A stretch of DNA of 64,000 nt from the IMG/VR virus record IMGVR_UViG_3300045837_000213, positions 29,432 through 93,431 of that record. The stretch is one strand, 5' to 3'. Shown one piece after another: positions 4,927-18,920 of the stretch. The notes below the pieces were generated by a model. That model was not told the origin of the DNA. It saw only the letters and a program-made list of their open reading frames with translations, and made no database searches. Within the stretch, counting starts at the first letter, position 1, and the number at the start of each line of letters is the position of its first letter. The DNA comes from a virus (lineage: Duplodnaviria > Caudoviricetes). The translations under genes were made by a program, and so were the position numbers.

Positions 4927-7900
4927 CTATGCGGGCGGCAAGTCCGCCGCCGTTAATGTCCCGGAGGTGCAGCGTCTGAGTTCCCGGACCTGACGCTCCA
5001 ACTTCGCTACCCTACTTTCGTGGTCGAAGAGATATAGGTATGCCTCTTCGACCGAGGCCAGTAGCGCGTCGCCGCCACTGAAGAGTCCGTGTCCGGCGGT
5101 CTGCCCGAAACGCGGCAGGTGCCACCAAGTGCGCGCGAACTCTTCGACCGCTTCGAGCGGCCTCAATCCGGCGTACTCTCTCGCCCCGTCATGATCAATA
5201 AACCTCTCCACCTTCCCCGTGGCCCAGTGCTCCAACACGTAGTCGGGGTTCGTATAACTCGCGCCGTTTTTGTACATGTCCCCCGACACGTTGACGGTCC
5301 CCGCGCCCTTGCTGCTCCCCGTCGCCGTACCCAGGAACACCCCGCCGTCCTGCGCGATGGTCAGGTCGGCGTGACCCCTGGAGTTGTTGTCGCAGAAGAA
5401 CGCGATGGCGTTATTGCCGCCGCTGACTTGCGACTGGTTGAAAATCTCCAGGTTGCCCCGCCGCGTGGAGAGAGCGCTGGTGCTGTTGATGACCTCAAAC
5501 AGCCCACTGCCACGTGAGGTCGTGCCGTCGCCCAGCTGGAAATACTGAAAGCTCGCCGTGTCGGTCGTATAGATTTGGACGTATGCCGTGCCGGAAGAGG
5601 CGCTGAAAGCGCCGTCGCCGCGCACGTCGAGCATGGCGATGGGCGCGGCGTTACTCCCTACCGTTAATCCCGATAGGGAACCCGCGTCAGCGTACACCCG
5701 TGCGTCAGACGAAGTGCCGCCGCTCAACTTGAGCAGAGCGGATTGCGTGCCCGCGTAATTCCACGCCTTCAGGACGAGCGCGCCCGTCGTGTTGGTGCTG
5801 CTGCCGGCGGCGGTGATACTGGCCTGAGAAATTACGTTGGTCGAGTCGTCTTTTGCCTGAATGGCGAGTATGTTCGCTCCGCCTGAGTTTTGCCAATAAG
5901 CGGAGCCAAAGCCGCTATTCGTCGGGACGTTAACGATCAGCGCGCCACTCGCCGAGTCCGTACGACCCACGACGAGATTTCCGCTCGTCGCGTCAATCTT
6001 GAGAAGCTGGTTGCCCGATGAGAGACCATAGAGACCCGTGCGATCCATCCAGACGCCCGTCCCGGCGCTTGCGGAAGTCGGCGGCGTCGTGCCGAGGGCG
6101 AACGAGCCGCTTGACGAACTGATCGTGACCGCGCCGGTGAAGCTGCCGGACGTGGCTGTGATCGCGCCGGAGATGGTCGCGCTTGTCGCCGTCAGATTGC
6201 CCGACGAATCCAGCGTGAAGTTCGCCGCCTTGATGAGTACCTTAGACGAGTCCCATTGCAGATAATTGTTAGCGTCTTTATAAAGAGACAGACGGCCCGA
6301 ATTCGCGCCCTCAAGATAAACGCCCGCGTTCGCGCCGTAAGAGGTGGGTGGAGTCGCGCCCATCGAAATGTACTCGCCAGTGTTGTCCACATAGACGTGC
6401 GTTGACGAGATGCGGCTACTGCTCAACGTCCACCCGGCTATCGAACCGCCGCTGGCTATGACGTTTCCGCTGGTCGCGTCAATCCTGAAGATTCGGAGGC
6501 CGCCGTTCAGCGCGTACAGACCCGTCCTGTCGAGCCACAGGCCGGTGCCGTGGAGGGAGTCGGTGGGCGGGAGCGACCCGATAGAGATTGAGCCGCTTGA
6601 CGAACTGATCGTGAGCGGCCCGGTGATCGAGCCTGACGTGGCGGTGATCGCGCCGGAGACGGTCGCGCCCGTGGCCGTGATCTGCCCGCTCGTCGCGTCA
6701 AGGATGAAATTCTGAGTTCCCGCGTTGAGTCCGAAGATGCCCGTGCGGTCAACCCAGATGCCCGTGCCGTGTGTCGCATCAGTGGGCGGCGTCGTGCCTA
6801 ATGTGAAGGCCGCGCCCGAACCGGACACCTGCATCTTGCCGACGAGGAACATCCCCTGCGAGGCATCCAACTGAATCATGTTGTTGCCCGCAGAGTCGTT
6901 GATGTTCAGCACGCCGGCGGACGTGAGCTGGATGCGGTTGGTCGTGTTGAGGCGAATGTCAACCTCGCCCGACGAGATGCGGACGTTGCTCTGCCCCGCC
7001 GCGACCTGCCCGACCGTGATGTTGCCGGCGGCGTCTATCTGCTGGACGACAGTAGAGAGTCCGTTGATAGTGCGGTAGCCGTTCGTGCTGTCAATCGTGA
7101 CGTGAGTCTTGCCCGCGGCGTATTCGCCCAGCGCGATGCCGACGGTTGAAGCCGTGTAACCGTAGAAGCCCACCAATTCGCCGAACGCGGCGTGCTCCGT
7201 GATGTCATTCCACGTAGAAGAATTTCTCTTCCAGAGAACTTGAGTTGGCCCGACCTGCCCCTTGTTGTAATAGACGCGCCGCGCGGATTGTTGAGGCGTC
7301 GTAGCCCATGAGGTGAAGGCGGAGATTCTGACCCTGACCCAAAACGCGGATTGAGAGTTGACCGTGCTGCTCGCCCAGCTTGTGAGACTCGAAGCCGTCC
7401 ACTCGAACCCTTGCCAGCCGGTCGCCTTCCAATCTCCGTTCGTGTTGCCGACGAAGGTAGGGGTAAAGCTCGTCCAGGCCGAACCGTTCCAGTACTCCCA
7501 CACGAGAGTCGCGCTGTAACTCGCGGCGGTCGTGACGTTGAAATACAAGTTGTTCCAACTCGTATTCTGGACGCCGAAATAGATAGCGCCGTTGAGGACG
7601 TTCGCCGAATCGCCGAAGGGCGACCAGTTGGCGGAGGCTGCGTAGTTTGACGAGAACGCGGGCGCTGCCGTGGCGTTGTAGATGAAGTCGGGCGCGACGC
7701 TGACGGTCGAATGAAGGGAGAAAATGTCCCAGTAGCCGTTACCGGCCTGGCCCGTGTCCAAAGCGGCGTCGCCCGCGTTCCACGCGTTCGCGCCTGTGCC
7801 GTCCAGGTTGCGCGCGACTGAATACTGATACCCCCCGGTGACAGTCGAGGGGCCGGAGGTGACCCGCATGAACTCAAGGCTGCCGGACTCCTCGAAGCGA

Positions 7901-10087: not shown

Positions 10088-13000
10088 TTACCCGGTGGCG
10101 GTCGAGGCGAGACCCGGCGAGCCGTCGAACATCTCGCAGACCTCGACGGTCAATGCGGAGGGGATCGTGCCGCCGCCCCCCGTGTTGAAGTCCTGCTGCT
10201 GCATGGCGCGCGTGTAGGTGAAGGAGCGCGCCTGCGTATGATCCACGCGCGCCTGGAGAGCGTCCTGCGCCTCGCCCGAAAGCTGACCGACGGTGGCCTG
10301 CGCCTGGTAGGGCCAGCGCACGGGCGAGACGTTGGCGACGAAGATCGGCTTCGAGAGGTCTCCGACGTAGAAGCGGATGACGCCGCTGGCGACCTCAATC
10401 GCGCACGGGGTACCTGCCACGGCGATGCGCTTCGATGAGTCGAAGGCGACTGAGCAGGGGCGCAGGTAGAGCACGCCCGACGCGACCACGGCGTCGAGAG
10501 AGCAGAAGGCCGGCGAGGGGACGAGAGCGGGGTAGCTCATCGTGAAGCTCGCGGGTGTGCCCGAGAGAGAGACAGGCGTGCCGTTCGGGATGAGCGCGAT
10601 CTGAAAGCGCCCCTCCGTGGCGTTCACGACGTAGTAAGCGCCGCTCAGGGGTGAGGCGGAGTTGAAGACCACCTGGTCGCCGTTCTGCCAGTAATGATCG
10701 GGCGCGACGATCTCATTCGTCGCCGTGTCGCGCCCGCACGCCACGGTCGCGCCCACAAGGCGGAACTGGAGCGGCGGGTAGTGCGTGCCGAGCGTGAAGT
10801 GGACTAACGAGTCGCCGTAGATGATCTGGCCGGCCTGGAAGTCGCACGTGTGCGTCGCGTCGCCCGCGGTCGAGAGCGTGCCGTCTTCCGCGACCGAGGC
10901 GATTGAGGACGTGCCGAAGAGGTACTGCCACGCGAGCGGTTCGGAGTAGCCCGTCTCGACGTAGTGCGTGCGAATCAGGGTCGCGCCGTTGAAGACGCGG
11001 ACGCGATAGACCTCGGCGACGCCGCCCGGGCCGAGCGAGCCGCGCCGGCCCTTATCCCAGGAGGCCGTCAGAGGCGAGCCGTTCGACGCGTCGAGTCGCG
11101 TGAGCTTGAGGTTCGACGGCTGCGGCAGGAAGGCGTCGGCCTGGAACGTGTACGAGGTCGCGGGCACGGTCGCGATGTCCGCGCCGGCGGCGACGAACTT
11201 ATGGTCGCGCGCGACGAGCGCCTCCGACGCGTCCACCGGCAGGAACTTGAGCGCGTCGTCCAGGACGAGCAGCCGCTCGCTCGACGAGTGCCCGCTCATC
11301 GCCGTCTGGTCTTGCGCGCGGTTGACGAGGTTCGAGAAGCGCCAGCGGTTCGCGTAGCCGCCCAGTTGCGTCGCCGTCTTGTATTGCAGGCGCTCCGACC
11401 CGACCATCAGGCGGCCCAAACCGGCCGCGATGTCCGCGTCAGTGAAGCTGGCCGTCGGCTGCACCGTCCCGTAGATGTCGGCGTCTATTGTCTCGCTCCC
11501 GGTGTTCGTCGCCGCCAACGTCGTGGCGCAGACGCCGACGCACGCGTAGCGCGTCAGGTCGCACTCCTTCCTGTAACCCGCGCCGCGGTCGACATTGACC
11601 GCGCAGCCGCGGAACGGGGCCTGCTCGTAAGAGGCGACGCCTACGTAGTAGCCCTCCTTGCCCGTCGCCGCGTCTTCCGCCGTGAGGTAGTCGGTCTCGG
11701 CGAACTGCCCGACGAGAGTCGGCGGGAAGAAGACGGCGGGCGGCGTCCACGTCGGGGGCAACAGGTTCACGGGTTCGTGGTACTGCGCGCCGGCGACGAA
11801 GACGCCCTTGAAGGCGAGCGAGCCGGGCACGGGCCCCGTCCGCTCGGAGACTCTCACCGTGTAGGTCGTGTCGCCGTCGTCTAATTCGAGAACGGTCGCG
11901 GCGGTCGCGACGAGGTACTGGTGCGGCAGGTCGAATTCGACGGCGTAGCGCCCCTCCGTCCACGCGGTCTCGCCGAGGCGCCGGGCGACCGCCGCGACCT
12001 CGTCGGGCGAGAGCGCCATCAGCGTCGTCGCCTGCTGCGGCGTCTGCGAGGTCGTCTCGTCGCGCATCCACGAGCGCGTGACGTTCATAAATTCCGCGTT
12101 CGGGTCGTAGGCCGTGAGGTCTATGCGGCGCGGCAGCTCCACGTCGTTGAGCTTGACGCTCGTTCGAACCAGCTTCGGCGCGTCGTTCGACTGCGAGTCG
12201 CCGCCCGCCTTCTGCGCGCCGAAGCCGAGGTGGTCGGGCGGCACGTGGTAGCTGGCCGCGCCCCCGCGAAGCACGGCAGTCACCGCGCCGCCTATGTGCG
12301 CGAAGTCGAAGCCCCACCGAATCTGGAGCGTCTGCGCGGCGATCTGTTTCAGCGAGGCGGGCTGCGTGACGGCCATGCCGCGCACGTAGAGAGAGGAGAG
12401 AGCCGAAAAGTCGTAGTCGGCGGTGAGCGCGCCCGAGCGCACGGCGAGGTCGTCGAGGACGGCCTGCGCCGTGATGATTGATTTCGAGCGCAGGACGGCG
12501 GTGAAGTTCGGCACCCTCTGATAGTTCGTGAGGTTGAAGCGCTCCAACACGAGGTAGCAGCGCCCCTTGTACGCGGGCGCGACCGGAAGCCCGGAGCCGT
12601 ATTCGACGGGGAACTGTGTCTGCCAGTAGGCGTCAATTATGGGGTCGGGGAGTTGCGCCTCGTTGCCGGGGTAGAAGCGGAGTGCGGAGAACGCGCCGCC
12701 GACGACCGTGGCCGAGACCATGCCCGTCGTGTCGGGCGCGGGGACGATCGAGAAGTTGGCCGCCGGGTTGTCACGGTAAACCGGGTCGAGCGGCGAGGGC
12801 GGCGCGAGGTGGTTGATCGTGGGCGGCGTGACGGGCGTCGGGTTGACCGCGCCCGTCACGCCGGGCACGCTCACCGTCAGCTTGTCGAGGAGCAGCGTCG
12901 TCGAGGAGAGATTTGTGACCTTAATCGTGTTGAGCGCGCCGGAGGCGAGCGCGAACGGCGCGGAGAAGTAGCCGAGCGCATAGACGCCGCCCGTCGAGTT

Positions 13001-13693
13001 CAACGTCGTCGTGAAGGTCGAAGTGCCGGCCGCGCCCGACCAGTCGAACCTGACCGAGACCGCCGCCGCCGCCGAGTAGAAAAAGTTGAGGCGGTAAGCA
13101 GCGCCGTTGCCGACGACGCCGTTGAATTGCAGCGACGCGTTCAGCCCCATCGAGACGGCCTTGCCGCCCGACGCCGCGGCGTCCGTGATCGTGGTCGCGC
13201 CGCCCGCCGGGGTGTTCCCCACGTATTCGGCCTCGTATGAGCCGAAGGCTTCGGGGATGCCCAGTTGCGGGCGGATGTCGTAGATGAGGTCGGCGTCGGC
13301 GTAGAGCGCGAGCAGTTCGCACTCGGTGTCGGCGAACATGATGCCGATGTCGGCCTCGTAATTGTCGTTGATGATTTGGGTCGAGCGCGCGCCCTTGCCC
13401 GACCCTTGCGTCTCGGTCGTCGTCGTCTGGAATTTCCTGATGTCGCTTAAATAGACGACGTTTCCGGCGATGCGAAACCCGTGCGCGCTCCCGTCGGGCT
13501 GCACGCCCCCATAAACCAGCGGGATCATCGAGCCGTATTCGCTATCCTGTATCTGAACAGAGCCGGAGAGTTGGCCGCGCTCCTGGGCTTTCGGCTTCGG
13601 CGTTAATAAATAATTTAATGTGAACTCCGCCGCTGAGGTTGCGGCTGCGACCGCAGCAACGAGGAGTATACTTCCTGAGATCGGATCGGCCAT
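10088..13693 (-). CDS. tail tip / host-specificity protein (GTA-like), with a CBM-like YEAE insert
   Basis: YGSMIPLVYG...RIAGNVVY, PAYKGRCYLVLE and RVPNFT motifs; follows DUF2460-DUF2163-NlpC. Confidence 0.85.
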   Translation of the reverse strand: MADPISGSILLVAAVAAATSAAEFTLNYLLTPKPKAQERGQLSGSVQIQDSEYGSMIPLVYGGVQPDGSAHGFRIAGNVVYLSDIRKFQTTTTETQGSGKGARSTQIINDNYEADIGIMFADTECELLALYADADLIYDIRPQLGIPEAFGSYEAEYVGNTPAGGATTITDAAASGGKAVSMGLNASLQFNGVVGNGAAYRLNFFYSAAAAVSVRFDWSGAAGTSTFTTTLNSTGGVYALGYFSAPFALASGALNTIKVTNLSSTTLLLDKLTVSVPGVTGAVNPTPVTPPTINHLAPPSPLDPVYRDNPAANFSIVPAPDTTGMVSATVVGGAFSALRFYPGNEAQLPDPIIDAYWQTQFPVEYGSGLPVAPAYKGRCYLVLERFNLTNYQRVPNFTAVLRSKSIITAQAVLDDLAVRSGALTADYDFSALSSLYVRGMAVTQPASLKQIAAQTLQIRWGFDFAHIGGAVTAVLRGGAASYHVPPDHLGFGAQKAGGDSQSNDAPKLVRTSVKLNDVELPRRIDLTAYDPNAEFMNVTRSWMRDETTSQTPQQATTLMALSPDEVAAVARRLGETAWTEGRYAVEFDLPHQYLVATAATVLELDDGDTTYTVRVSERTGPVPGSLAFKGVFVAGAQYHEPVNLLPPTWTPPAVFFPPTLVGQFAETDYLTAEDAATGKEGYYVGVASYEQAPFRGCAVNVDRGAGYRKECDLTRYACVGVCATTLAATNTGSETIDADIYGTVQPTASFTDADIAAGLGRLMVGSERLQYKTATQLGGYANRWRFSNLVNRAQDQTAMSGHSSSERLLVLDDALKFLPVDASEALVARDHKFVAAGADIATVPATSYTFQADAFLPQPSNLKLTRLDASNGSPLTASWDKGRRGSLGPGGVAEVYRVRVFNGATLIRTHYVETGYSEPLAWQYLFGTSSIASVAEDGTLSTAGDATHTCDFQAGQIIYGDSLVHFTLGTHYPPLQFRLVGATVACGRDTATNEIVAPDHYWQNGDQVVFNSASPLSGAYYVVNATEGRFQIALIPNGTPVSLSGTPASFTMSYPALVPSPAFCSLDAVVASGVLYLRPCSVAFDSSKRIAVAGTPCAIEVASGVIRFYVGDLSKPIFVANVSPVRWPYQAQATVGQLSGEAQDALQARVDHTQARSFTYTRAMQQQDFNTGGGGTIPSALTVEVCEMFDGSPGLASTATG

Positions 13694-13903
13694 TTTGTGA
13701 GAAAAAGAAAAATGCCAGTGGGCAGACGTAGAGGTCTGCCCCCGCTGGCATTTTCGAGGTTCCGTTTTTTCCTTGATTATAGGTCGCGGTTCGCCGTCGC
13801 GGCCCGATCAGGAGTGACGCGCGTTGCGCGCGCTGTTAATACCATGCATTATAGCCGCGCCACTTGTCAATTTGTTTCTCACGAATGGTAAAGGAGGCGA
13901 AAA

Positions 13904-14356
13904 ATGACGCGAATTTTTGCGATGGCCCTACTTTTCTCAGCCTTCGCCCTGGCGCATGGCGCTCCGCAAGTCGCCGACAGGCCAGCAGGTAAGGCCACGG
14001 TCTATTTTTACAGGCTCAAGGAGTCGGGGCCCTACATCAAGACCAAGACGAGTGTTTACTGCGACGATGAAAAGCTGGCGGAGATAGGGAACGAGAGATA
14101 TTTCGCCGCCATGCTCGAACCCGGCATTCACACGTTCAGGTCAACAGATAAGCAGAGCGGCATCGAGAAAGAATTGAAGGCTGGCGAGGTCTATTATGTG
14201 AGAATCGAAATGAATTTGACCCGGATTAAATTATTCCGCAAGCCACCTTTCAGGGTGGCGACCGTCGAGCCTGAGCAGGGTAAGTATGAGGTAAAGCGAT
14301 TGAAGCCCATAAGTGAAGGTGATGTTAAGAACCATGAGAAGGTGACATTGCGGTAA
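13904..14356 (+). CDS. DUF2846-like secreted/envelope protein (moron)
   Basis: Signal peptide; ATVYFYR...LEPGIHTF...LKAGEVYYVRI; low GC; AAGGAGG RBS. Confidence 0.7.
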   Translation: MTRIFAMALLFSAFALAHGAPQVADRPAGKATVYFYRLKESGPYIKTKTSVYCDDEKLAEIGNERYFAAMLEPGIHTFRSTDKQSGIEKELKAGEVYYVRIEMNLTRIKLFRKPPFRVATVEPEQGKYEVKRLKPISEGDVKNHEKVTLR

Positions 14357-14596
14357 TTACAATTTAGGCTCGCGCTCGTGGACGTATCTCTCAAGGCAAG
14401 TGTAGCCGTCCGCTTTGGCTTGTGCGGCGTAGCCCCTGAGCCTGGCGATGATCTGCTCCGGCGTGCCCCGCGTCGTGTCATTCAAGATCGCCGCCGCCGA
14501 GAGCACGTCACCCCGCGTAAACTCGAACTCGTCTATGACGAGGAGTAAAGCGTCCTCCAACTCCGGCCTGCCCGTGTAGTAAAACCCCCCGCTCAC
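14357..14596 (-). CDS. hypothetical protein
   Basis: GTGA overlap with the upstream HTH gene. Confidence 0.55.
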   Translation of the reverse strand: MSGGFYYTGRPELEDALLLVIDEFEFTRGDVLSAAAILNDTTRGTPEQIIARLRGYAAQAKADGYTCLERYVHEREPKL

Positions 14597-14805
14597 TTCT
14601 TCCCGCCTTTCTTTGTTGATGGCCGCCCGCCCTTATCAGGCGTGAACTCTTGAAGGTCGCGGCGTGAGATGAATTTCTTTCCCGCGATTTCAATGAATGG
14701 GAGTTTACCTTGTCTTACTAGATGGCTAATCGCCTGTTTGGTAGTGCCGCGCTCTTCCGCGGCCTGCGTGATTGTAAGGAGTTCTTCGGGGTCTATTTTC
14801 ACCAT
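14593..14805 (-). CDS. helix-turn-helix DNA-binding protein (excisionase/MerR-like), probable cassette regulator
   Basis: LLTITQAAEERGTTKQAISHLVRQGKLP; basic GGRP tail; start chosen downstream of a -10 box. Confidence 0.8.
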   Translation of the reverse strand: MVKIDPEELLTITQAAEERGTTKQAISHLVRQGKLPFIEIAGKKFISRRDLQEFTPDKGGRPSTKKGGKK

Positions 14806-14811
14806 ATACCT

Positions 14812-14932
14812 ATTATACATACCTTTTGCCGGATGACAATATGTTATGCAAATTAAATATGCGGCTTGGCAATAAATCTCTTGCCTTCCGACAAAAGGTT
14901 ATTTATAATCCTTTTGTCGCTAGACAAAAGGA
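14812..14932. promoter_or_regulatory. divergent sigma70-type promoters with repeated operator-like motif
   Basis: + strand TTGCCT(14881)-17-TATAAT(14904); - strand TTGTCA-16-TATAAT (14839 to 14812); four CCTTTTGYC/GACAAAAGG copies. Confidence 0.7.
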
Positions 14933-14945
14933 AAGGCGGGCGAAC

Positions 14946-15074
14946 ATGGAAGACAAGAAAGAGCAGAAGCAGGAGACGCCGGAGGAGCGGGCCGAGCGGC
15001 AGGAGCTTAACCGGCGGATGTTCGAGTGGTTCTACGGCTACTGCGGCCAGATGGAGACGACGGTTCTATGTTAA
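14946..15074 (+). CDS. small hypothetical protein
   Basis: First ORF after the promoter; purine-rich RBS. Confidence 0.45.
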   Translation: MEDKKEQKQETPEERAERQELNRRMFEWFYGYCGQMETTVLC

Positions 15075-15427
15075 GGAAATTTCGTCCCATTACGCTCATC
15101 ACCCCTTTACAGGCGGCCACGCTTCTCGGCGTTGACCGCGCGGAACTCTTCAGGCGTTCGGGAGTCGCGGCGCACCTGGCGAAGGTGCGCCAAGGGAAAC
15201 GCTTCTCTTTCGTCCTCGAAGAAGTCGAGGCTCTCAGAAAGGAGTTACTTATGGATTACGTGATTCTATTGGCCCGCGACCCAAGCTCGCTCGCCTCTCA
15301 GGTAAACGACCTTATCAAGCGCGGGTGGCAGCCTCAGGGCGGCGTCGCCGCGAGCGAAGTTCACGAGGAAGGGACGGCGGCAGCGACGCAGTGGGCGCAG
15401 GCGATGGTTAAGCCCCAGTCGGAGTAA
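15068..15427 (+). CDS. HTH-like domain in frame with a DUF1737-like domain (internal start at 15251)
   Basis: QAATLLGVDR; AAGGAG before ATG 15251; VNDLIKRGWQPQGGV. Confidence 0.6.
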   Translation: MLRKFRPITLITPLQAATLLGVDRAELFRRSGVAAHLAKVRQGKRFSFVLEEVEALRKELLMDYVILLARDPSSLASQVNDLIKRGWQPQGGVAASEVHEEGTAAATQWAQAMVKPQSE

Positions 15428-15458
15428 ACGAACATTCCTCAGGAAGGGAGAGGGATTC

Positions 15459-15872
15459 ATGGCACAACGGGAAAGCACGGACGATATGTATTCATTACTC
15501 AAGAGGCGTTTCGACTGCTCGGAGCGGGCCGCGCTCGTCAGGCGGAAATTCGAGGTGCTGACGGTCGGGCGCGTCTCTTACCTGATTCAGTCAATCGTCT
15601 CCGAGGAGCAGGACACCTTCAAAGAGAGGTTCAACCGCCCGATCACCTTCGAGCAGGCGAAGGAGTTGGCGTCGCGGCTCCTGACGGGCGACTTCGGCGG
15701 CGGCGACGGGCAGATTCACGCCCTCATCGAGCTAATCGTCGGGATCGCCTACGAGGAGGATCACGTCGAGCGCGAACGGCTTGCGATGAGCGCTATCCGC
15801 GAGGCGTTCTTTTTCTCGGAGGCCCACGACGAAGCTTTGAACCAATTTTTCCATTGCGGGCCGAAGCAATGA
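15459..15872 (+). CDS. hypothetical protein
   Basis: GGAGAGG RBS; coupled to the HNH gene. Confidence 0.65.
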   Translation: MAQRESTDDMYSLLKRRFDCSERAALVRRKFEVLTVGRVSYLIQSIVSEEQDTFKERFNRPITFEQAKELASRLLTGDFGGGDGQIHALIELIVGIAYEEDHVERERLAMSAIREAFFFSEAHDEALNQFFHCGPKQ

Positions 15873-16174
15873 GGCGAAGATTGACTCAGGCGGAAAAGTT
15901 GCGACGGCTCTTCCAAAGGCGTCGTATGGCTACGGCCCGGCGGATGCTACGCCGGGCCGCGTCATACGGCGTAAGGGCCGAACATGTGACCCTCGACGAG
16001 ATCATCGAGCGCGACGGAACGCGCTGCCACCTTTGCGGCTTAGAAACAGACGTGGACGATAGGACTCACGACCACGTTGTGCCTCTCGTCAGGGGCGGGG
16101 AGCATACGACTATCAACTTACGCATCGCCCACAGGCGGTGTAATTCAATGAAGGGCGGTAAGAGTCACGCCTGA
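15869..16174 (+). CDS. HNH endonuclease
   Basis: RDGTRCHLCG...DHVVPLVRGGEH...NLRIAHRRCNSMKG. Confidence 0.9.
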   Translation: MRRRLTQAEKLRRLFQRRRMATARRMLRRAASYGVRAEHVTLDEIIERDGTRCHLCGLETDVDDRTHDHVVPLVRGGEHTTINLRIAHRRCNSMKGGKSHA

Positions 16175-16193
16175 TTCTAAAACGAGTTTTCTT

Positions 16194-16273
16194 GGGCGGG
16201 CATGGCTCGGTGAGGTAGGGCAACGCATGGAACGGTTTGGCCCGGCGCAGTATGGCCTGGCAAGGCATGGTTC
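16194..16273 (+). repeat. GGY-NN pentamer array 1 (16 units; putative guide RNA)
   Basis: GGGCG GGCAT GGCTC GGTGA GGTAG GGCAA CGCAT GGAAC GGTTT GGCCC GGCGC AGTAT GGCCT GGCAA GGCAT GGTTC. Confidence 0.9.
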
Positions 16274-16288
16274 AAACGCAAAAGGAGC

Positions 16289-16918
16289 ATGAGAATGTCA
16301 AACATCGTCAAGGCGAAAATCACGATCAGGGGTATGCGTCCGCTCTTACAACATCATTTCGGGCCGGACGCGTTGCCTTTGGAAAAGCAGGAGAAAGACG
16401 GCGTGGCGGGGAACTCGCCCAACGAGTGGCGGAAGACGGCGATGGTCACTAAAGACGGCCAGCTTTACCTTGAGCCGACCTACGCCTTTGCCACAATCCG
16501 CGACGCGGCGAAGTACACGAAAAAGGGGAGAGGCTCACTCCAAACCGCCGTCGCCGCCACCCTTCAAGTGCTGGACGACAGGATTTTGATTGATAGGTTT
16601 TTTCCGGGCTTCCCGAACGGACATGCCTTCGACATCCAGAAGGTCGAGCCGCCTTCGCTCGACAGGGAGCTTCCGGTTTACCTCGACGTGCAGTCTGTGA
16701 GGAATCCGACCACCAAAGCCCGCAACGTCAGGTACAGGGTGGCCGCATCCTCCGGCTGGTCGTGTTCGTTTACGATCATGTTCGACAAGACAGTCGTTGA
16801 CCGTAACCAGATGCAAGCTGTCCTTAATGACGCCGGCACTCTCGTCGGTATTGCCGACGGCAGAAGCGTTGGGTTTGGCAGGTTTTCCGTTGAAGCTTTC
16901 GACTTCTTAGAGTCTTAA
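16289..16918 (+). CDS. stand-alone Cas7/RAMP-like RNA-binding protein
   Basis: N-terminal strand ITIRGMRPLL; WSCSFTI; C-terminal Gly-rich loop GIADGRSVGFGRF; AAGGAG RBS (start 16289 or 16295); no other cas genes in the window. Confidence 0.8.
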   Translation: MRMSNIVKAKITIRGMRPLLQHHFGPDALPLEKQEKDGVAGNSPNEWRKTAMVTKDGQLYLEPTYAFATIRDAAKYTKKGRGSLQTAVAATLQVLDDRILIDRFFPGFPNGHAFDIQKVEPPSLDRELPVYLDVQSVRNPTTKARNVRYRVAASSGWSCSFTIMFDKTVVDRNQMQAVLNDAGTLVGIADGRSVGFGRFSVEAFDFLES

Positions 16919-16921
16919 CGC

Positions 16922-16987
16922 GGTGAGGCGGGGCAGGGTTCGGTATGGCGGGGCTTGGCGGTGGCCGGGCTTGGCGAGGCAAGGTCA
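16922..16987 (+). repeat. GGY-NN pentamer array 2 (13 units; putative guide RNA)
   Basis: GGTGA GGCGG GGCAG GGTTC GGTAT GGCGG GGCTT GGCGGT GGCCG GGCTT GGCGA GGCAA GGTCA. Confidence 0.9.
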
Positions 16988-17057
16988 CATACTGAAATCT
17001 GCTTCGGTCGCTCCACGGTCGAGGGCTTCGAGTTCATAGATTCATAAAGTTCCACTC

Positions 17058-17144
17058 GGCTTGGCTGCGGCTTGGCTGGTCATGGCAGGCTTCGGCTCGG
17101 TAGGGCAAGGCGATGGCAGGTTTGGGCTTGGCTAGGCGAGGAAC
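17058..17144 (+). repeat. GGY-NN pentamer array 3 (17 units; putative guide RNA)
   Basis: GGCTT GGCTGC GGCTT GGCTG GTCAT GGCAG GCTTC GGCTC GGTAG GGCAA GGCGAT GGCAG GTTTG GGCTT GGCTA GGCGA GGAAC. Confidence 0.85.
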
Positions 17145-17146
17145 GA

Positions 17147-17443
17147 ATGCCCAAGAAGCGACAGCCGCGCGAAATCTGGCTTAAGACGAAGCGCAGAATC
17201 TACGAGCGAGACGGGGGCTTATGTCAATACCCGTCTGGCAAGCATCCTGTCGCATTTGAGGAATCACATTGCGACCACATCCAGAGCGGGAAGCGAGCAA
17301 CGAACGCCGATAGCAACCTCCGAACTCTCTGCCGGATGCATCACGTCTTGAGAGCAGATAAGCGGCACAGGGGGCTAGTTGCCGCTGCCCTCCGAGATGG
17401 TATTATTGATGCCGGCTGGCGCAGTCAGGTATGGGAAGATTGA
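17147..17443 (+). CDS. HNH endonuclease
   Basis: RDGGLCQYP...HCDHIQSG...NADSNLRTLCRMHH; GAGGA RBS before MPKKRQ. Confidence 0.85.
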   Translation: MPKKRQPREIWLKTKRRIYERDGGLCQYPSGKHPVAFEESHCDHIQSGKRATNADSNLRTLCRMHHVLRADKRHRGLVAAALRDGIIDAGWRSQVWED

Positions 17444-17452
17444 ATTTCACGG

Positions 17453-17522
17453 GGCATGGCAGTGTTCGGCTAGGGTAGGTTAGGTTCGGCAAGGCGTGGC
17501 TCGGTAAGGCGTGGCAAGGAGA
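17453..17522 (+). repeat. GGY-NN pentamer array 4 (14 units; putative guide RNA)
   Basis: GGCAT GGCAG TGTTC GGCTA GGGTA GGTTA GGTTC GGCAA GGCGT GGCTC GGTAA GGCGT GGCAA GGAGA. Confidence 0.9.
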
Positions 17523-17553
17523 AAGGGCGGATGAACTCCGCCCTTTCTATTTT
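17520..17553 (+). terminator. intrinsic terminator closing the RAMP/HNH operon
   Basis: AGAAAGGGCGGA-TGAAC-TCCGCCCTTTCT followed by ATTTT. Confidence 0.85.
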
Positions 17554-17637
17554 GAAGTGATCGGGGCGCGTTGGCTATGGCGAACCCGCGCCCCTCCGGT
17601 GATAAGAAAATGCCAGCACAACCTTACCACCAAAACT

Positions 17638-18120
17638 TCACACGTCTTCTAGCGCGGCTATTTCGCGGACTCGGAACGCCGAAACATTAAAAATCGGATC
17701 AGTCCAGCGGCCTTCCGTCACACACCGCGTGGCGCGATAACGGTAGGCGTGAACGCAGCGCAGATTGTCCACCTCGTTAAGCGTCACGACTCCACAATGC
17801 TTTGCCGGTTCATTCAACCTATAGCAACGGGTCACTACATCGCCGGGCCTTGCGTCCCGCCAATGTTGCAGCCTCACCATGTGCTCGGCGAGTTTCGTAT
17901 CTAACAAGTCGCCTTCGGGAACGATATGGTATTCATAATCGTGTAGCTCGAAACCGCAGATGTCTGCCGCCGCCAGCAATACGCCCAAACAATCAAAGCC
18001 GACATCGCGCGAGCGACCCCGGTAGGCATACGGCGAGCCGACGAGGGAGCGCGCCGCGGCGACGAAGGCCGCGCGCAGCTCGTCCGCCGTCGGGTTAGGT
18101 GTGAGGGTTATTTCGGCCAC
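17638..18120 (-). CDS. NlpC/P60 tail-associated peptidase
   Basis: AARSLVGSPY...GFDCLGV...KHCGV...VHAY; GTG start overlapping the DUF2163 stop. Confidence 0.85.
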   Translation of the reverse strand: MAEITLTPNPTADELRAAFVAAARSLVGSPYAYRGRSRDVGFDCLGVLLAAADICGFELHDYEYHIVPEGDLLDTKLAEHMVRLQHWRDARPGDVVTRCYRLNEPAKHCGVVTLNEVDNLRCVHAYRYRATRCVTEGRWTDPIFNVSAFRVREIAALEDV

Positions 18121-18920
18121 GAGTAGAGTTTGTTTCTGCCGGGGATGGCCGGCTCGCCGCGGAAGAATTCTGCCCGCCCCTTCTTGATGCAGGCGGGGAA
18201 GGTGTGCGCGCAGCCTTCGGAGAGGACGACCGTGTCGCCTATGGCGACGGCGTGCCTCATGTTCTCGACGAGCTGCACGGTGAGCGTCCCGCCCGACTGA
18301 GAACTGTTGCTGATCTGACCCGACAGGCCGTTGTTCGCGCCGGACGTGAAGGTGATCTTGCCGCGCTGGTAGTAGTTGTCTTCCGGCTCGGTGAGCGTAA
18401 ACGTCACGACGTCGCGCGCGGTGAAGCCGGTCACGGTCGCCGTCGCCTTGTTGGGCGTCGCGCCGCACTGTGTCGAGCCGAAACCCGTGCGGCACGTGTC
18501 CTGGTAGGTGTCCCCGACCGGCTGGTTGAAGAGGAGCGCCACGTCGAGGATTTCGCACTTCATCGCGCCGGCGTCATAGACGACCGAGTTGAGCACCCCG
18601 CGCCACGTCTCCTCGACCGTCCCCGTGTCCCAGCGGTACTTCCTGATCTCGACGCGCGCGCCGTCCCACTTGCCGCCCAACAGGTCTTCCTTCGTCACCC
18701 CGGCTGCGCTCATCGAAAGCCCGATCTCCATGTTTCCGGGTTCGAGGTTTTCGACCTGCTGCTCCTGCGAGGGGCGCAGGTCGGCGACCGCGTATGTGAC
18801 TCCCGCGTAGGTGACCGGGCGCGTCGCGCTCGTCACGTCCACGCCCGAACCGTCCAAGGCGATCAGGCGCCAGAGCGTCGTGTACCGGGAGAGCTGCGTG
18901 ATGTCTATGGTCGCGGGCAT
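18108..18920 (-). CDS. DUF2163 / BR0599-type tail hub protein
   Basis: CRTGFGSTQCG, FTSGANNG and GCAHTFPAC...FRGEPAIPG motifs. Confidence 0.85.
   Translation of the reverse strand: MPATIDITQLSRYTTLWRLIALDGSGVDVTSATRPVTYAGVTYAVADLRPSQEQQVENLEPGNMEIGLSMSAAGVTKEDLLGGKWDGARVEIRKYRWDTGTVEETWRGVLNSVVYDAGAMKCEILDVALLFNQPVGDTYQDTCRTGFGSTQCGATPNKATATVTGFTARDVVTFTLTEPEDNYYQRGKITFTSGANNGLSGQISNSSQSGGTLTVQLVENMRHAVAIGDTVVLSEGCAHTFPACIKKGRAEFFRGEPAIPGRNKLYSWPK

Follow-up and report, generated by a model that had tools for sequence, protein, structure and literature searches.

A phage-borne VIPR guide array that probably spells a conserved tail-tip site of sibling phages, with the resident copy putatively spared by silent codon swaps

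Described VIPR systems and the locus in the tail module

Vipr is a lone RAMP protein that polymerizes on vrRNAs made up of GGY-NN pentamers; in reading double-stranded DNA it passes over one base per unit, generally the one at the codon wobble position (bioRxiv 10.64898/2026.04.26.720920, 10.64898/2026.04.26.720927, 10.64898/2026.10.15.759431), and this one-nucleotide-skip rule corresponds to a gapped NN-x reading of the target (bioRxiv 10.64898/2026.04.26.720920, 10.64898/2026.04.26.720927). The vrRNA genes flank vipr as tandem runs of 9-16 GGY-NN (YNNGG) pentamers in which GGY is conserved and NN variable, and the systems characterized are those of Escherichia phage SUSP1 and a Pseudomonas fulva prophage. 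Most VIPR systems are carried by phages and directed against competing elements, with predicted targets called at an NN match of at least 80%, a level that no self match reached (2026 preprints). The residues of SUSP1 Vipr that bind GGY are H17, R138, D177, W178, and R179. A long 3' pseudoknot tail characterizes the SUSP1 clade, or type II vrRNAs; since other VIPR types have other array architectures, this tail is best regarded as a type II feature and not as family-defining.

The window analyzed here is a stretch of 64,000 nucleotides taken from a virus record of 93,431 bases. An island of ~3.9 kb (13694-17637), mostly on the + strand, splits its minus-strand GTA-like tail module, composed of DUF2460, BR0599, and NlpC/P60 genes and then a 1201-aa Phage-tail_3 tail-tip gene. 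The island contains the vipr gene (16295..16918, + strand; alternative ATG at 16289) encoding a lone RAMP/Cas7-like protein of 207 aa, around which lie four + strand arrays of 12-16 units each. Array 1 begins at 16194 upstream of vipr, followed on its other side by arrays 2 (16922..16987, + strand), 3 (17058..17145, + strand), and 4 (17453..17522, + strand), and a GC-rich hairpin and T-run at ~17520-17553 ends the operon. An HNH endonuclease gene (15854..16174, + strand, 106 aa) is located directly upstream of array 1, and an HNH-like accessory gene that is a candidate vap (17147..17443, + strand, 98 aa) is located between arrays 3 and 4. The 98-aa protein matched PHROG HNH families at an E of about 1e-9 and displayed a D-H ... 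N ... H-H motif by eye, with a Pfam HNH score under threshold. A gene of the same size stands beside vipr in related loci, occupying the same place downstream in L006, L008, and a third contig (three of four close homologues). The 106-aa HNH gene was not seen beside vipr in the related loci examined and therefore may be island cargo instead of part of the system.

Several lines of comparison identified the 207-aa protein. It matched PDB entry 36pp (36pp_D, 'SUSP1 Vipr protein') with a phmmer E=1.3e-6, in an alignment that placed H20, R148, and the G-loop Asp and Arg opposite SUSP1 H17, R138, D177, and R179, with Gly at the W178 position and a weak N-terminal stretch placing H17. A tblastn search returned Felixounavirus proteins with 30% identity over 94-97% of the length, an AF2 model (pLDDT 73) matched Csm3/Cas7 chains with a probability of 1.00 and an E of about 1e-8, and metagenomes contained 1572 homologues. 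Judged from alignment and predicted fold, the 207-aa protein is a Vipr homologue. Four close homologues (81-84% identical) were found in other phage contigs, again with flanking GGY-NN arrays, and such arrays flank the Vipr homologues in L006-L009, where the surrounding backbones are unrelated and include HTH_17 genes, an integrase region, and different tail modules. The presence of Vipr proteins with 81-84% identity in unrelated phage backbones suggests that the vipr-vap-array cassette moves between phage lineages.

Arrays of this Vipr clade (the window, L006, L007, and L008) share a short AAGTTTYC-like 5' leader, whose final C takes the place of the Y preceding the first NN, together with a 3' end that is semi-conserved (GGYAA GGCAT GGTTY); a long pseudoknot tail is absent. 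In the window, arrays 2 and 3 contain one-base frame slips, resulting in units of 6 nt.

The locus fits the defining features of VIPR except for the long 3' pseudoknot tail. In common with the SUSP1 and P. fulva systems, it has a lone RAMP protein of ~200 aa, GGY-NN guide genes on both sides of vipr, one skipped base at the wobble, carriage by a phage, predicted targets in competing relatives, and a self match below the non-self match. Compared to SUSP1, the Vipr protein is only about 30% identical and has Gly as the W178 equivalent, the arrays conserve just the last two or three units and the short 5' leader in place of the long pseudoknot tail, and the accessory is a 98-aa HNH-like protein and not a DNA-binding vap1. 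Whereas known VIPR systems are directed at a satellite recombinase or lysogeny regulators, the targets predicted here are sibling-phage tail genes, and the putative self-avoidance by Leu/Ser/Arg codon-family switching described below also sets this locus apart from published VIPR. A likeness extends to the Cas7 family of Class 1 CRISPR-Cas (Csm3, Cmr4, Csf2, Cas7-11), including the RRM/RAMP fold, a G-loop and thumb, and oligomerization on a guide RNA whose bases are flipped at regular intervals; the predicted Vipr fold matched Csm3 chains at an E of about 1e-8. In contrast to Class 1 CRISPR-Cas, the locus has a period of 5 nt with two read bases compared to 6 nt with five, and no other cas genes.

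Two further identities were considered for the arrays and rejected. A CRISPR-Cas system (type III/IV-like) was discarded on the absence of a repeat-spacer array and of cas families among the neighbor genes. A 5-nt-phased protein-binding RNA (TRAP- or CsrA-sponge-like), in which NN decoding would arise by chance, was dropped on the SUSP1 Vipr match in the PDB, the test on relatives given below, and the Rfam result, the sole match of the arrays being PrrB/RsmZ over array 4 (E=0.94, with 17.5 bits where the threshold is 44). Nor did the nearby genes include a homologue of CsrA or TRAP.

The array 1 guide and its matches in resident and related phages

The + strand from 16194 to 16273 is composed of sixteen 5-base units with a constant GG(C/T) and two variable final bases. 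Units 1-14 read GGGCG GGCAT GGCTC GGTGA GGTAG GGCAA CGCAT GGAAC GGTTT GGCCC GGCGC AGTAT GGCCT GGCAA. The predicted guide part comprises 13 GGY-NN units (16194..16258, + strand) with the NN series CG AT TC GA AG AA AT AC TT CC GC AT CT. The initial annotation had given a guide series of 14 units, and a re-reading of the units from 16194 returned the identical letters; its fourteenth unit is probably not guide, however, as the last three units (GGCAA GGCAT GGTTC; 16259..16273, + strand) resemble the semi-conserved 3' end of related-locus arrays and so probably form a handle, leaving units 1-13 as the guide. Units 15-16 matched no homologue. A putative extra 5' unit, TT at 16192-16193, is preceded by the conserved leader ending in C and also agrees with TT at 13434-13435 on the target side. 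A promoter scan upstream of array 1 revealed nothing useful.

The resident counterpart of the guide lies in the tail-tip gene, of host-specificity type (10088..13693, minus strand, 1201 aa, Pfam Phage-tail_3). Read two bases on and one off, the + strand from 13437 gives CT AT TC CT AA TA AC AC TT CC GC AT CG AA, i.e., eight of 14 units exact and 21/28 matching bases, the bases passed over being without exception third codon positions of the minus-strand gene. Both the gapped match and its register had been proposed in the initial annotation and were reproduced. Including the TT unit, the partial match (13434..13477, + strand; codons F73-K87) reaches 23/30, and over units 1-13 alone it amounts to 19/26. 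The site encodes FRIAGNVVYLSDIR, tail-tip residues 73-86 (F73-R86), and the mismatches fall into the classes first described, namely Arg, Ser, and Leu family switches, V/I, Y/F, and, facing Arg CGC, an AGx codon that could also stand for Ser. In the window the score of 21/28 was the top non-self match at gaps 0-5 on both strands (runners-up 20 and 18), and it was also the top match across the whole virus record of 93,431 bases. The comparison with shuffled unit orders and other gap sizes that the annotation had suggested yielded, over 1000 shuffles, a probability for a maximum of at least 21 of 0.005 at gap 1 and 0.012 at gaps 0-5. Given four arrays and several possible readings, the in-window match of array 1 is suggestive and by itself not conclusive. 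The resident target patch (13449-13478) has a locally high A+T content at its silent positions (GGA, TAT, TTA, and AAA), which is unusual in a genome of 64% G+C.

Eight tail-tip protein homologues were found, and the DNA comparison covers five of them (L001-L005), which are not independent of one another. None of these five relatives has a cassette between the NlpC/P60-type gene and the tail-tip gene, which directly adjoin each other. In all five the guide matched the homologous site, with frame and strand unchanged relative to the tail-tip gene, and the wobble register with codon position 3 skipped was kept in the resident and the five relatives (6/6 genomes). Over units 1-14 the scores were 24/28 in L001, L002, L003, and L004 and 22/28 in L005, compared to 21/28 in the resident; over units 1-13 they were 23/26 in L002, 22/26 in L001, L003, and L004, 21/26 in L005, and 19/26 in the resident; and with the extra unit (units 0-14) they were 26/30 in L001-L004, 24/30 in L005, and 23/30 in the resident. 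The L002 site differs from the guide by one base over units 0-11. The highest score among 2000 unit-order shuffles over the same 59 kb was 21, and scores did not exceed 19 when the gap size was changed, the unit order reversed, or the whole string reversed, so that native order and gap 1 were both needed. Control guides of at least 10 units from four other VIPR loci (L006-L009) reached at most 76% on the whole sequence set, with no meaningful matches. The published criterion of at least 80% NN was passed by four of five relatives (24/28, or 86%) and failed by the resident (21/28, or 75%). The true target had been postulated from the window to be the homologous tail gene of a related phage, a proposal against which equally good scores from shuffled arrays or the lack of a better-matching relative would have counted. 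The comparison supported it, as shuffles stopped at 21 and the relatives reached 24/28 (four) and 22/28 (one) against the resident 21/28.

A perfect target was sought by the pattern search that the initial annotation had recommended, and the exact pattern (20 specified bases) gave 0 matches in viral, genome, and metagenome contig collections; these scans were a superset of any perfect target, and the pattern was validated on the retrieved loci. Likewise, none of 108 tail-tip homologues contained a fully guide-compatible peptide, a search with a single N-terminal tail-tip protein in genome and viral contig collections retrieved no relative, and tblastn of the tail-tip N-terminus retrieved no cultured-phage relative. 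The mismatches of the relatives to the guide are situated at unit 6 and at units 12-13, close to the 3' end, and SUSP1 filaments begin assembly at the guide 3' end (2026 VIPR preprints). A match of 75% may not fully protect the resident, and one of 86% may not suffice for targeting.

Among the remaining arrays, units 1-11 of array 4 matched 21/22 at a wobble-aligned site (CGFETFDYFYDLI) in the ~160-aa NlpC/P60-type gene of L001 (about 1290-1330) and L002 (about 5537-5577), with a shuffle maximum of 18. The resident homologue of this target (17920..17961, minus strand), in the NlpC/P60-type gene right of the island, scored 14/22 with six amino-acid changes. The 306-aa open reading frame at this place (17638-18558, minus strand) is probably over-called; the relatives have ~160 aa, and homology starting at residue 147 (VAEITLTPNPT...) suggests a GTG start near 18120. 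The top match of array 2 was the vipr gene of L007.

Silent codon switches in the carrier

Wobble skipping has been argued to block synonymous escape from VIPR (bioRxiv 10.64898/2026.04.26.720920, 10.64898/2026.04.26.720927, 10.64898/2026.10.15.759431). The six-fold codons of Leu, Ser, and Arg form a concrete exception to this argument by permitting silent change at read positions, and the text of the 2026 VIPR preprints makes no mention of such a loophole. The resident tail-tip gene encodes Leu82 as TTA, Ser83 as AGC, and Arg86 as AGG, compared to CTC, TCG/TCC, and CGC, respectively, in four close relatives and to the guide-type codons. Within the resident tail-tip gene, TTA accounts for 6 of 98 Leu codons and AGG for 4 of 54 Arg codons. 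A total of 68 Leu/Ser/Arg tail-tip sites were comparable, i.e., conserved in the five proteins with the four relatives agreeing on the codon family, and the resident carried private switches at nine. Inside the target all three comparable sites were switched against a background of 9.2% outside (P=0.0008).

At the protein level, with the best codon choice allowed, the resident peptide was the most guide-compatible of the 108 homologues (28/30), yet its codon families differ; the guide therefore appears to spell a peptide almost identical to that of the carrier, using the codon families of the relatives. Silent self-avoidance by Leu/Ser/Arg codon-family switching in the carrier phage is supported statistically by these codon comparisons, although the recoding may predate the cassette as an escape from the guide of a rival. 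Other tight clusters of private Leu/Ser/Arg switches were observed at codons 413-420 of L002 (Leu413 TTA, Arg419 AGA, and Ser420 AGC), codons 201-202 of L004, and resident codons 26-30, and these clusters may mark sites recoded against other guides.

Proposed action and competing interpretations

Array 1 is, with good probability, the gene for a VIPR guide RNA that spells a conserved tail-tip site of sibling phages, the resident copy being spared by silent codon swaps. By analogy with SUSP1, array 1 would be transcribed and its vrRNA would load Vipr, with one protomer per GGY motif and the NN pairs presented for binding to double-stranded DNA in an xNN register that coincides with codons and ignores wobble bases. 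The guide would spell the N-terminal motif F-R-I-A-G-N-V-I-x-L-S-D-I-R-K of the tail-tip gene, as encoded by sibling phages of the GTA-like-tailed group, and vrRNA 1, having + strand sense, would pair with the coding strand of the minus-strand tail-tip gene. In a co-infecting or resident sibling, the most likely consequence would be silencing of the tail operon; given the HNH-like accessory gene, the sibling DNA may be cut instead. The carrier tail-tip copy would be shielded by TTA, AGC, and AGG at Leu82, Ser83, and Arg86, which alter read positions and not the protein and bring the self match down to 75%.

The best match in the carrier genome falls in its own tail operon and in the wobble register, as would be expected if vrRNA 1 bound the resident tail-tip gene via the 75% match and timed or damped late-gene expression. 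Such self-regulation is nevertheless very unlikely, as the relatives match better and the resident differences are silent changes at read positions, opposite to selection for self-binding; array 4 follows the same pattern, and published surveys found no self match of at least 80%. A chance resemblance, with array 1 aimed at an unsampled target unrelated to tail genes, could be argued from the moderate in-window P of 0.005-0.012, given four arrays and several readings, and from the absence of a perfect target in the collections searched. It would leave unexplained the relatives at 24/28, a score never approached in 2000 shuffles, as well as the wobble-frame match in all six genomes and the recoding cluster (P=0.0008), and is thus considered extremely improbable.

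A third interpretation concerns the spread of the island itself. In the resident, the counterpart of the array 1 target is 216 bp to the left of the island and that of the array 4 target 283 bp to its right, so that in cassette-free relatives the two targets would stand on either side of the insertion point, separated by about 530 bp. This placement of the targets of the outer guides is a homing-like geometry. A short direct repeat, CTGGCATTTT, followed by (T)CTT in gene sense, is present at both island edges (about 13700-13745 and about 17600-17625), and at the left edge a long hairpin, AAAATGCCAG ... CTGGCATTTT, is located just upstream of the tail-tip start codon. In RNA-guided homing, the outer guides (arrays 1 and 4) would recognize the alleles of cassette-free siblings, the HNH-like accessory would cut, and recombinational repair templated by the carrier genome would copy in the 3.9-kb cassette together with recoded flanks, making the Leu/Ser/Arg switches co-converted immunity markers. 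The locus would then be functionally analogous to the free-standing HNH homing genes of phages, where a nuclease-bearing insertion also lies between two conserved genes, the recognized sites are near the insertion point in cassette-free alleles, and the carrier allele is immune by sequence changes, with the difference that recognition here would be RNA-guided via Vipr. Besides the positions of the two target homologues and the direct repeat at the two edges, the abutting flanking genes of the relatives without the island, the two HNH genes (the 98-aa one having the HNH motif, a PHROG match, and a conserved place beside vipr), and the nuclease-type vap genes of some VIPR types (2026 paper) are consistent with this. 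However, array 2 points elsewhere, at vipr itself, the close Vipr homologues in unrelated backbones gave no sign of the same flank logic, the 98-aa protein scored under the Pfam HNH threshold, and VIPR cleavage is not reported in the 2026 VIPR preprints, leaving homing an unlikely interpretation.

Natural VIPR targets are few so far, comprising a satellite recombinase, prophage regulators, and other VIPR loci. To these the locus adds an uncultured soil-type phage whose guide can be compared directly both with the better-matching targets in rivals and with the spared copy of the carrier. The points that are new here are the putative silent self-avoidance via six-fold-degenerate codons and the guides predicted to be aimed at both genes flanking the cassette. 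If homing were true, guidance by wobble skipping would have a natural synonymous loophole, and the flanking-target geometry and the HNH genes offer a lead toward RNA-guided cassette spread. With siblings as the probable target, the carrier would use six-fold-codon switches at all three available sites, suggesting a simple model of self versus non-self for VIPR.
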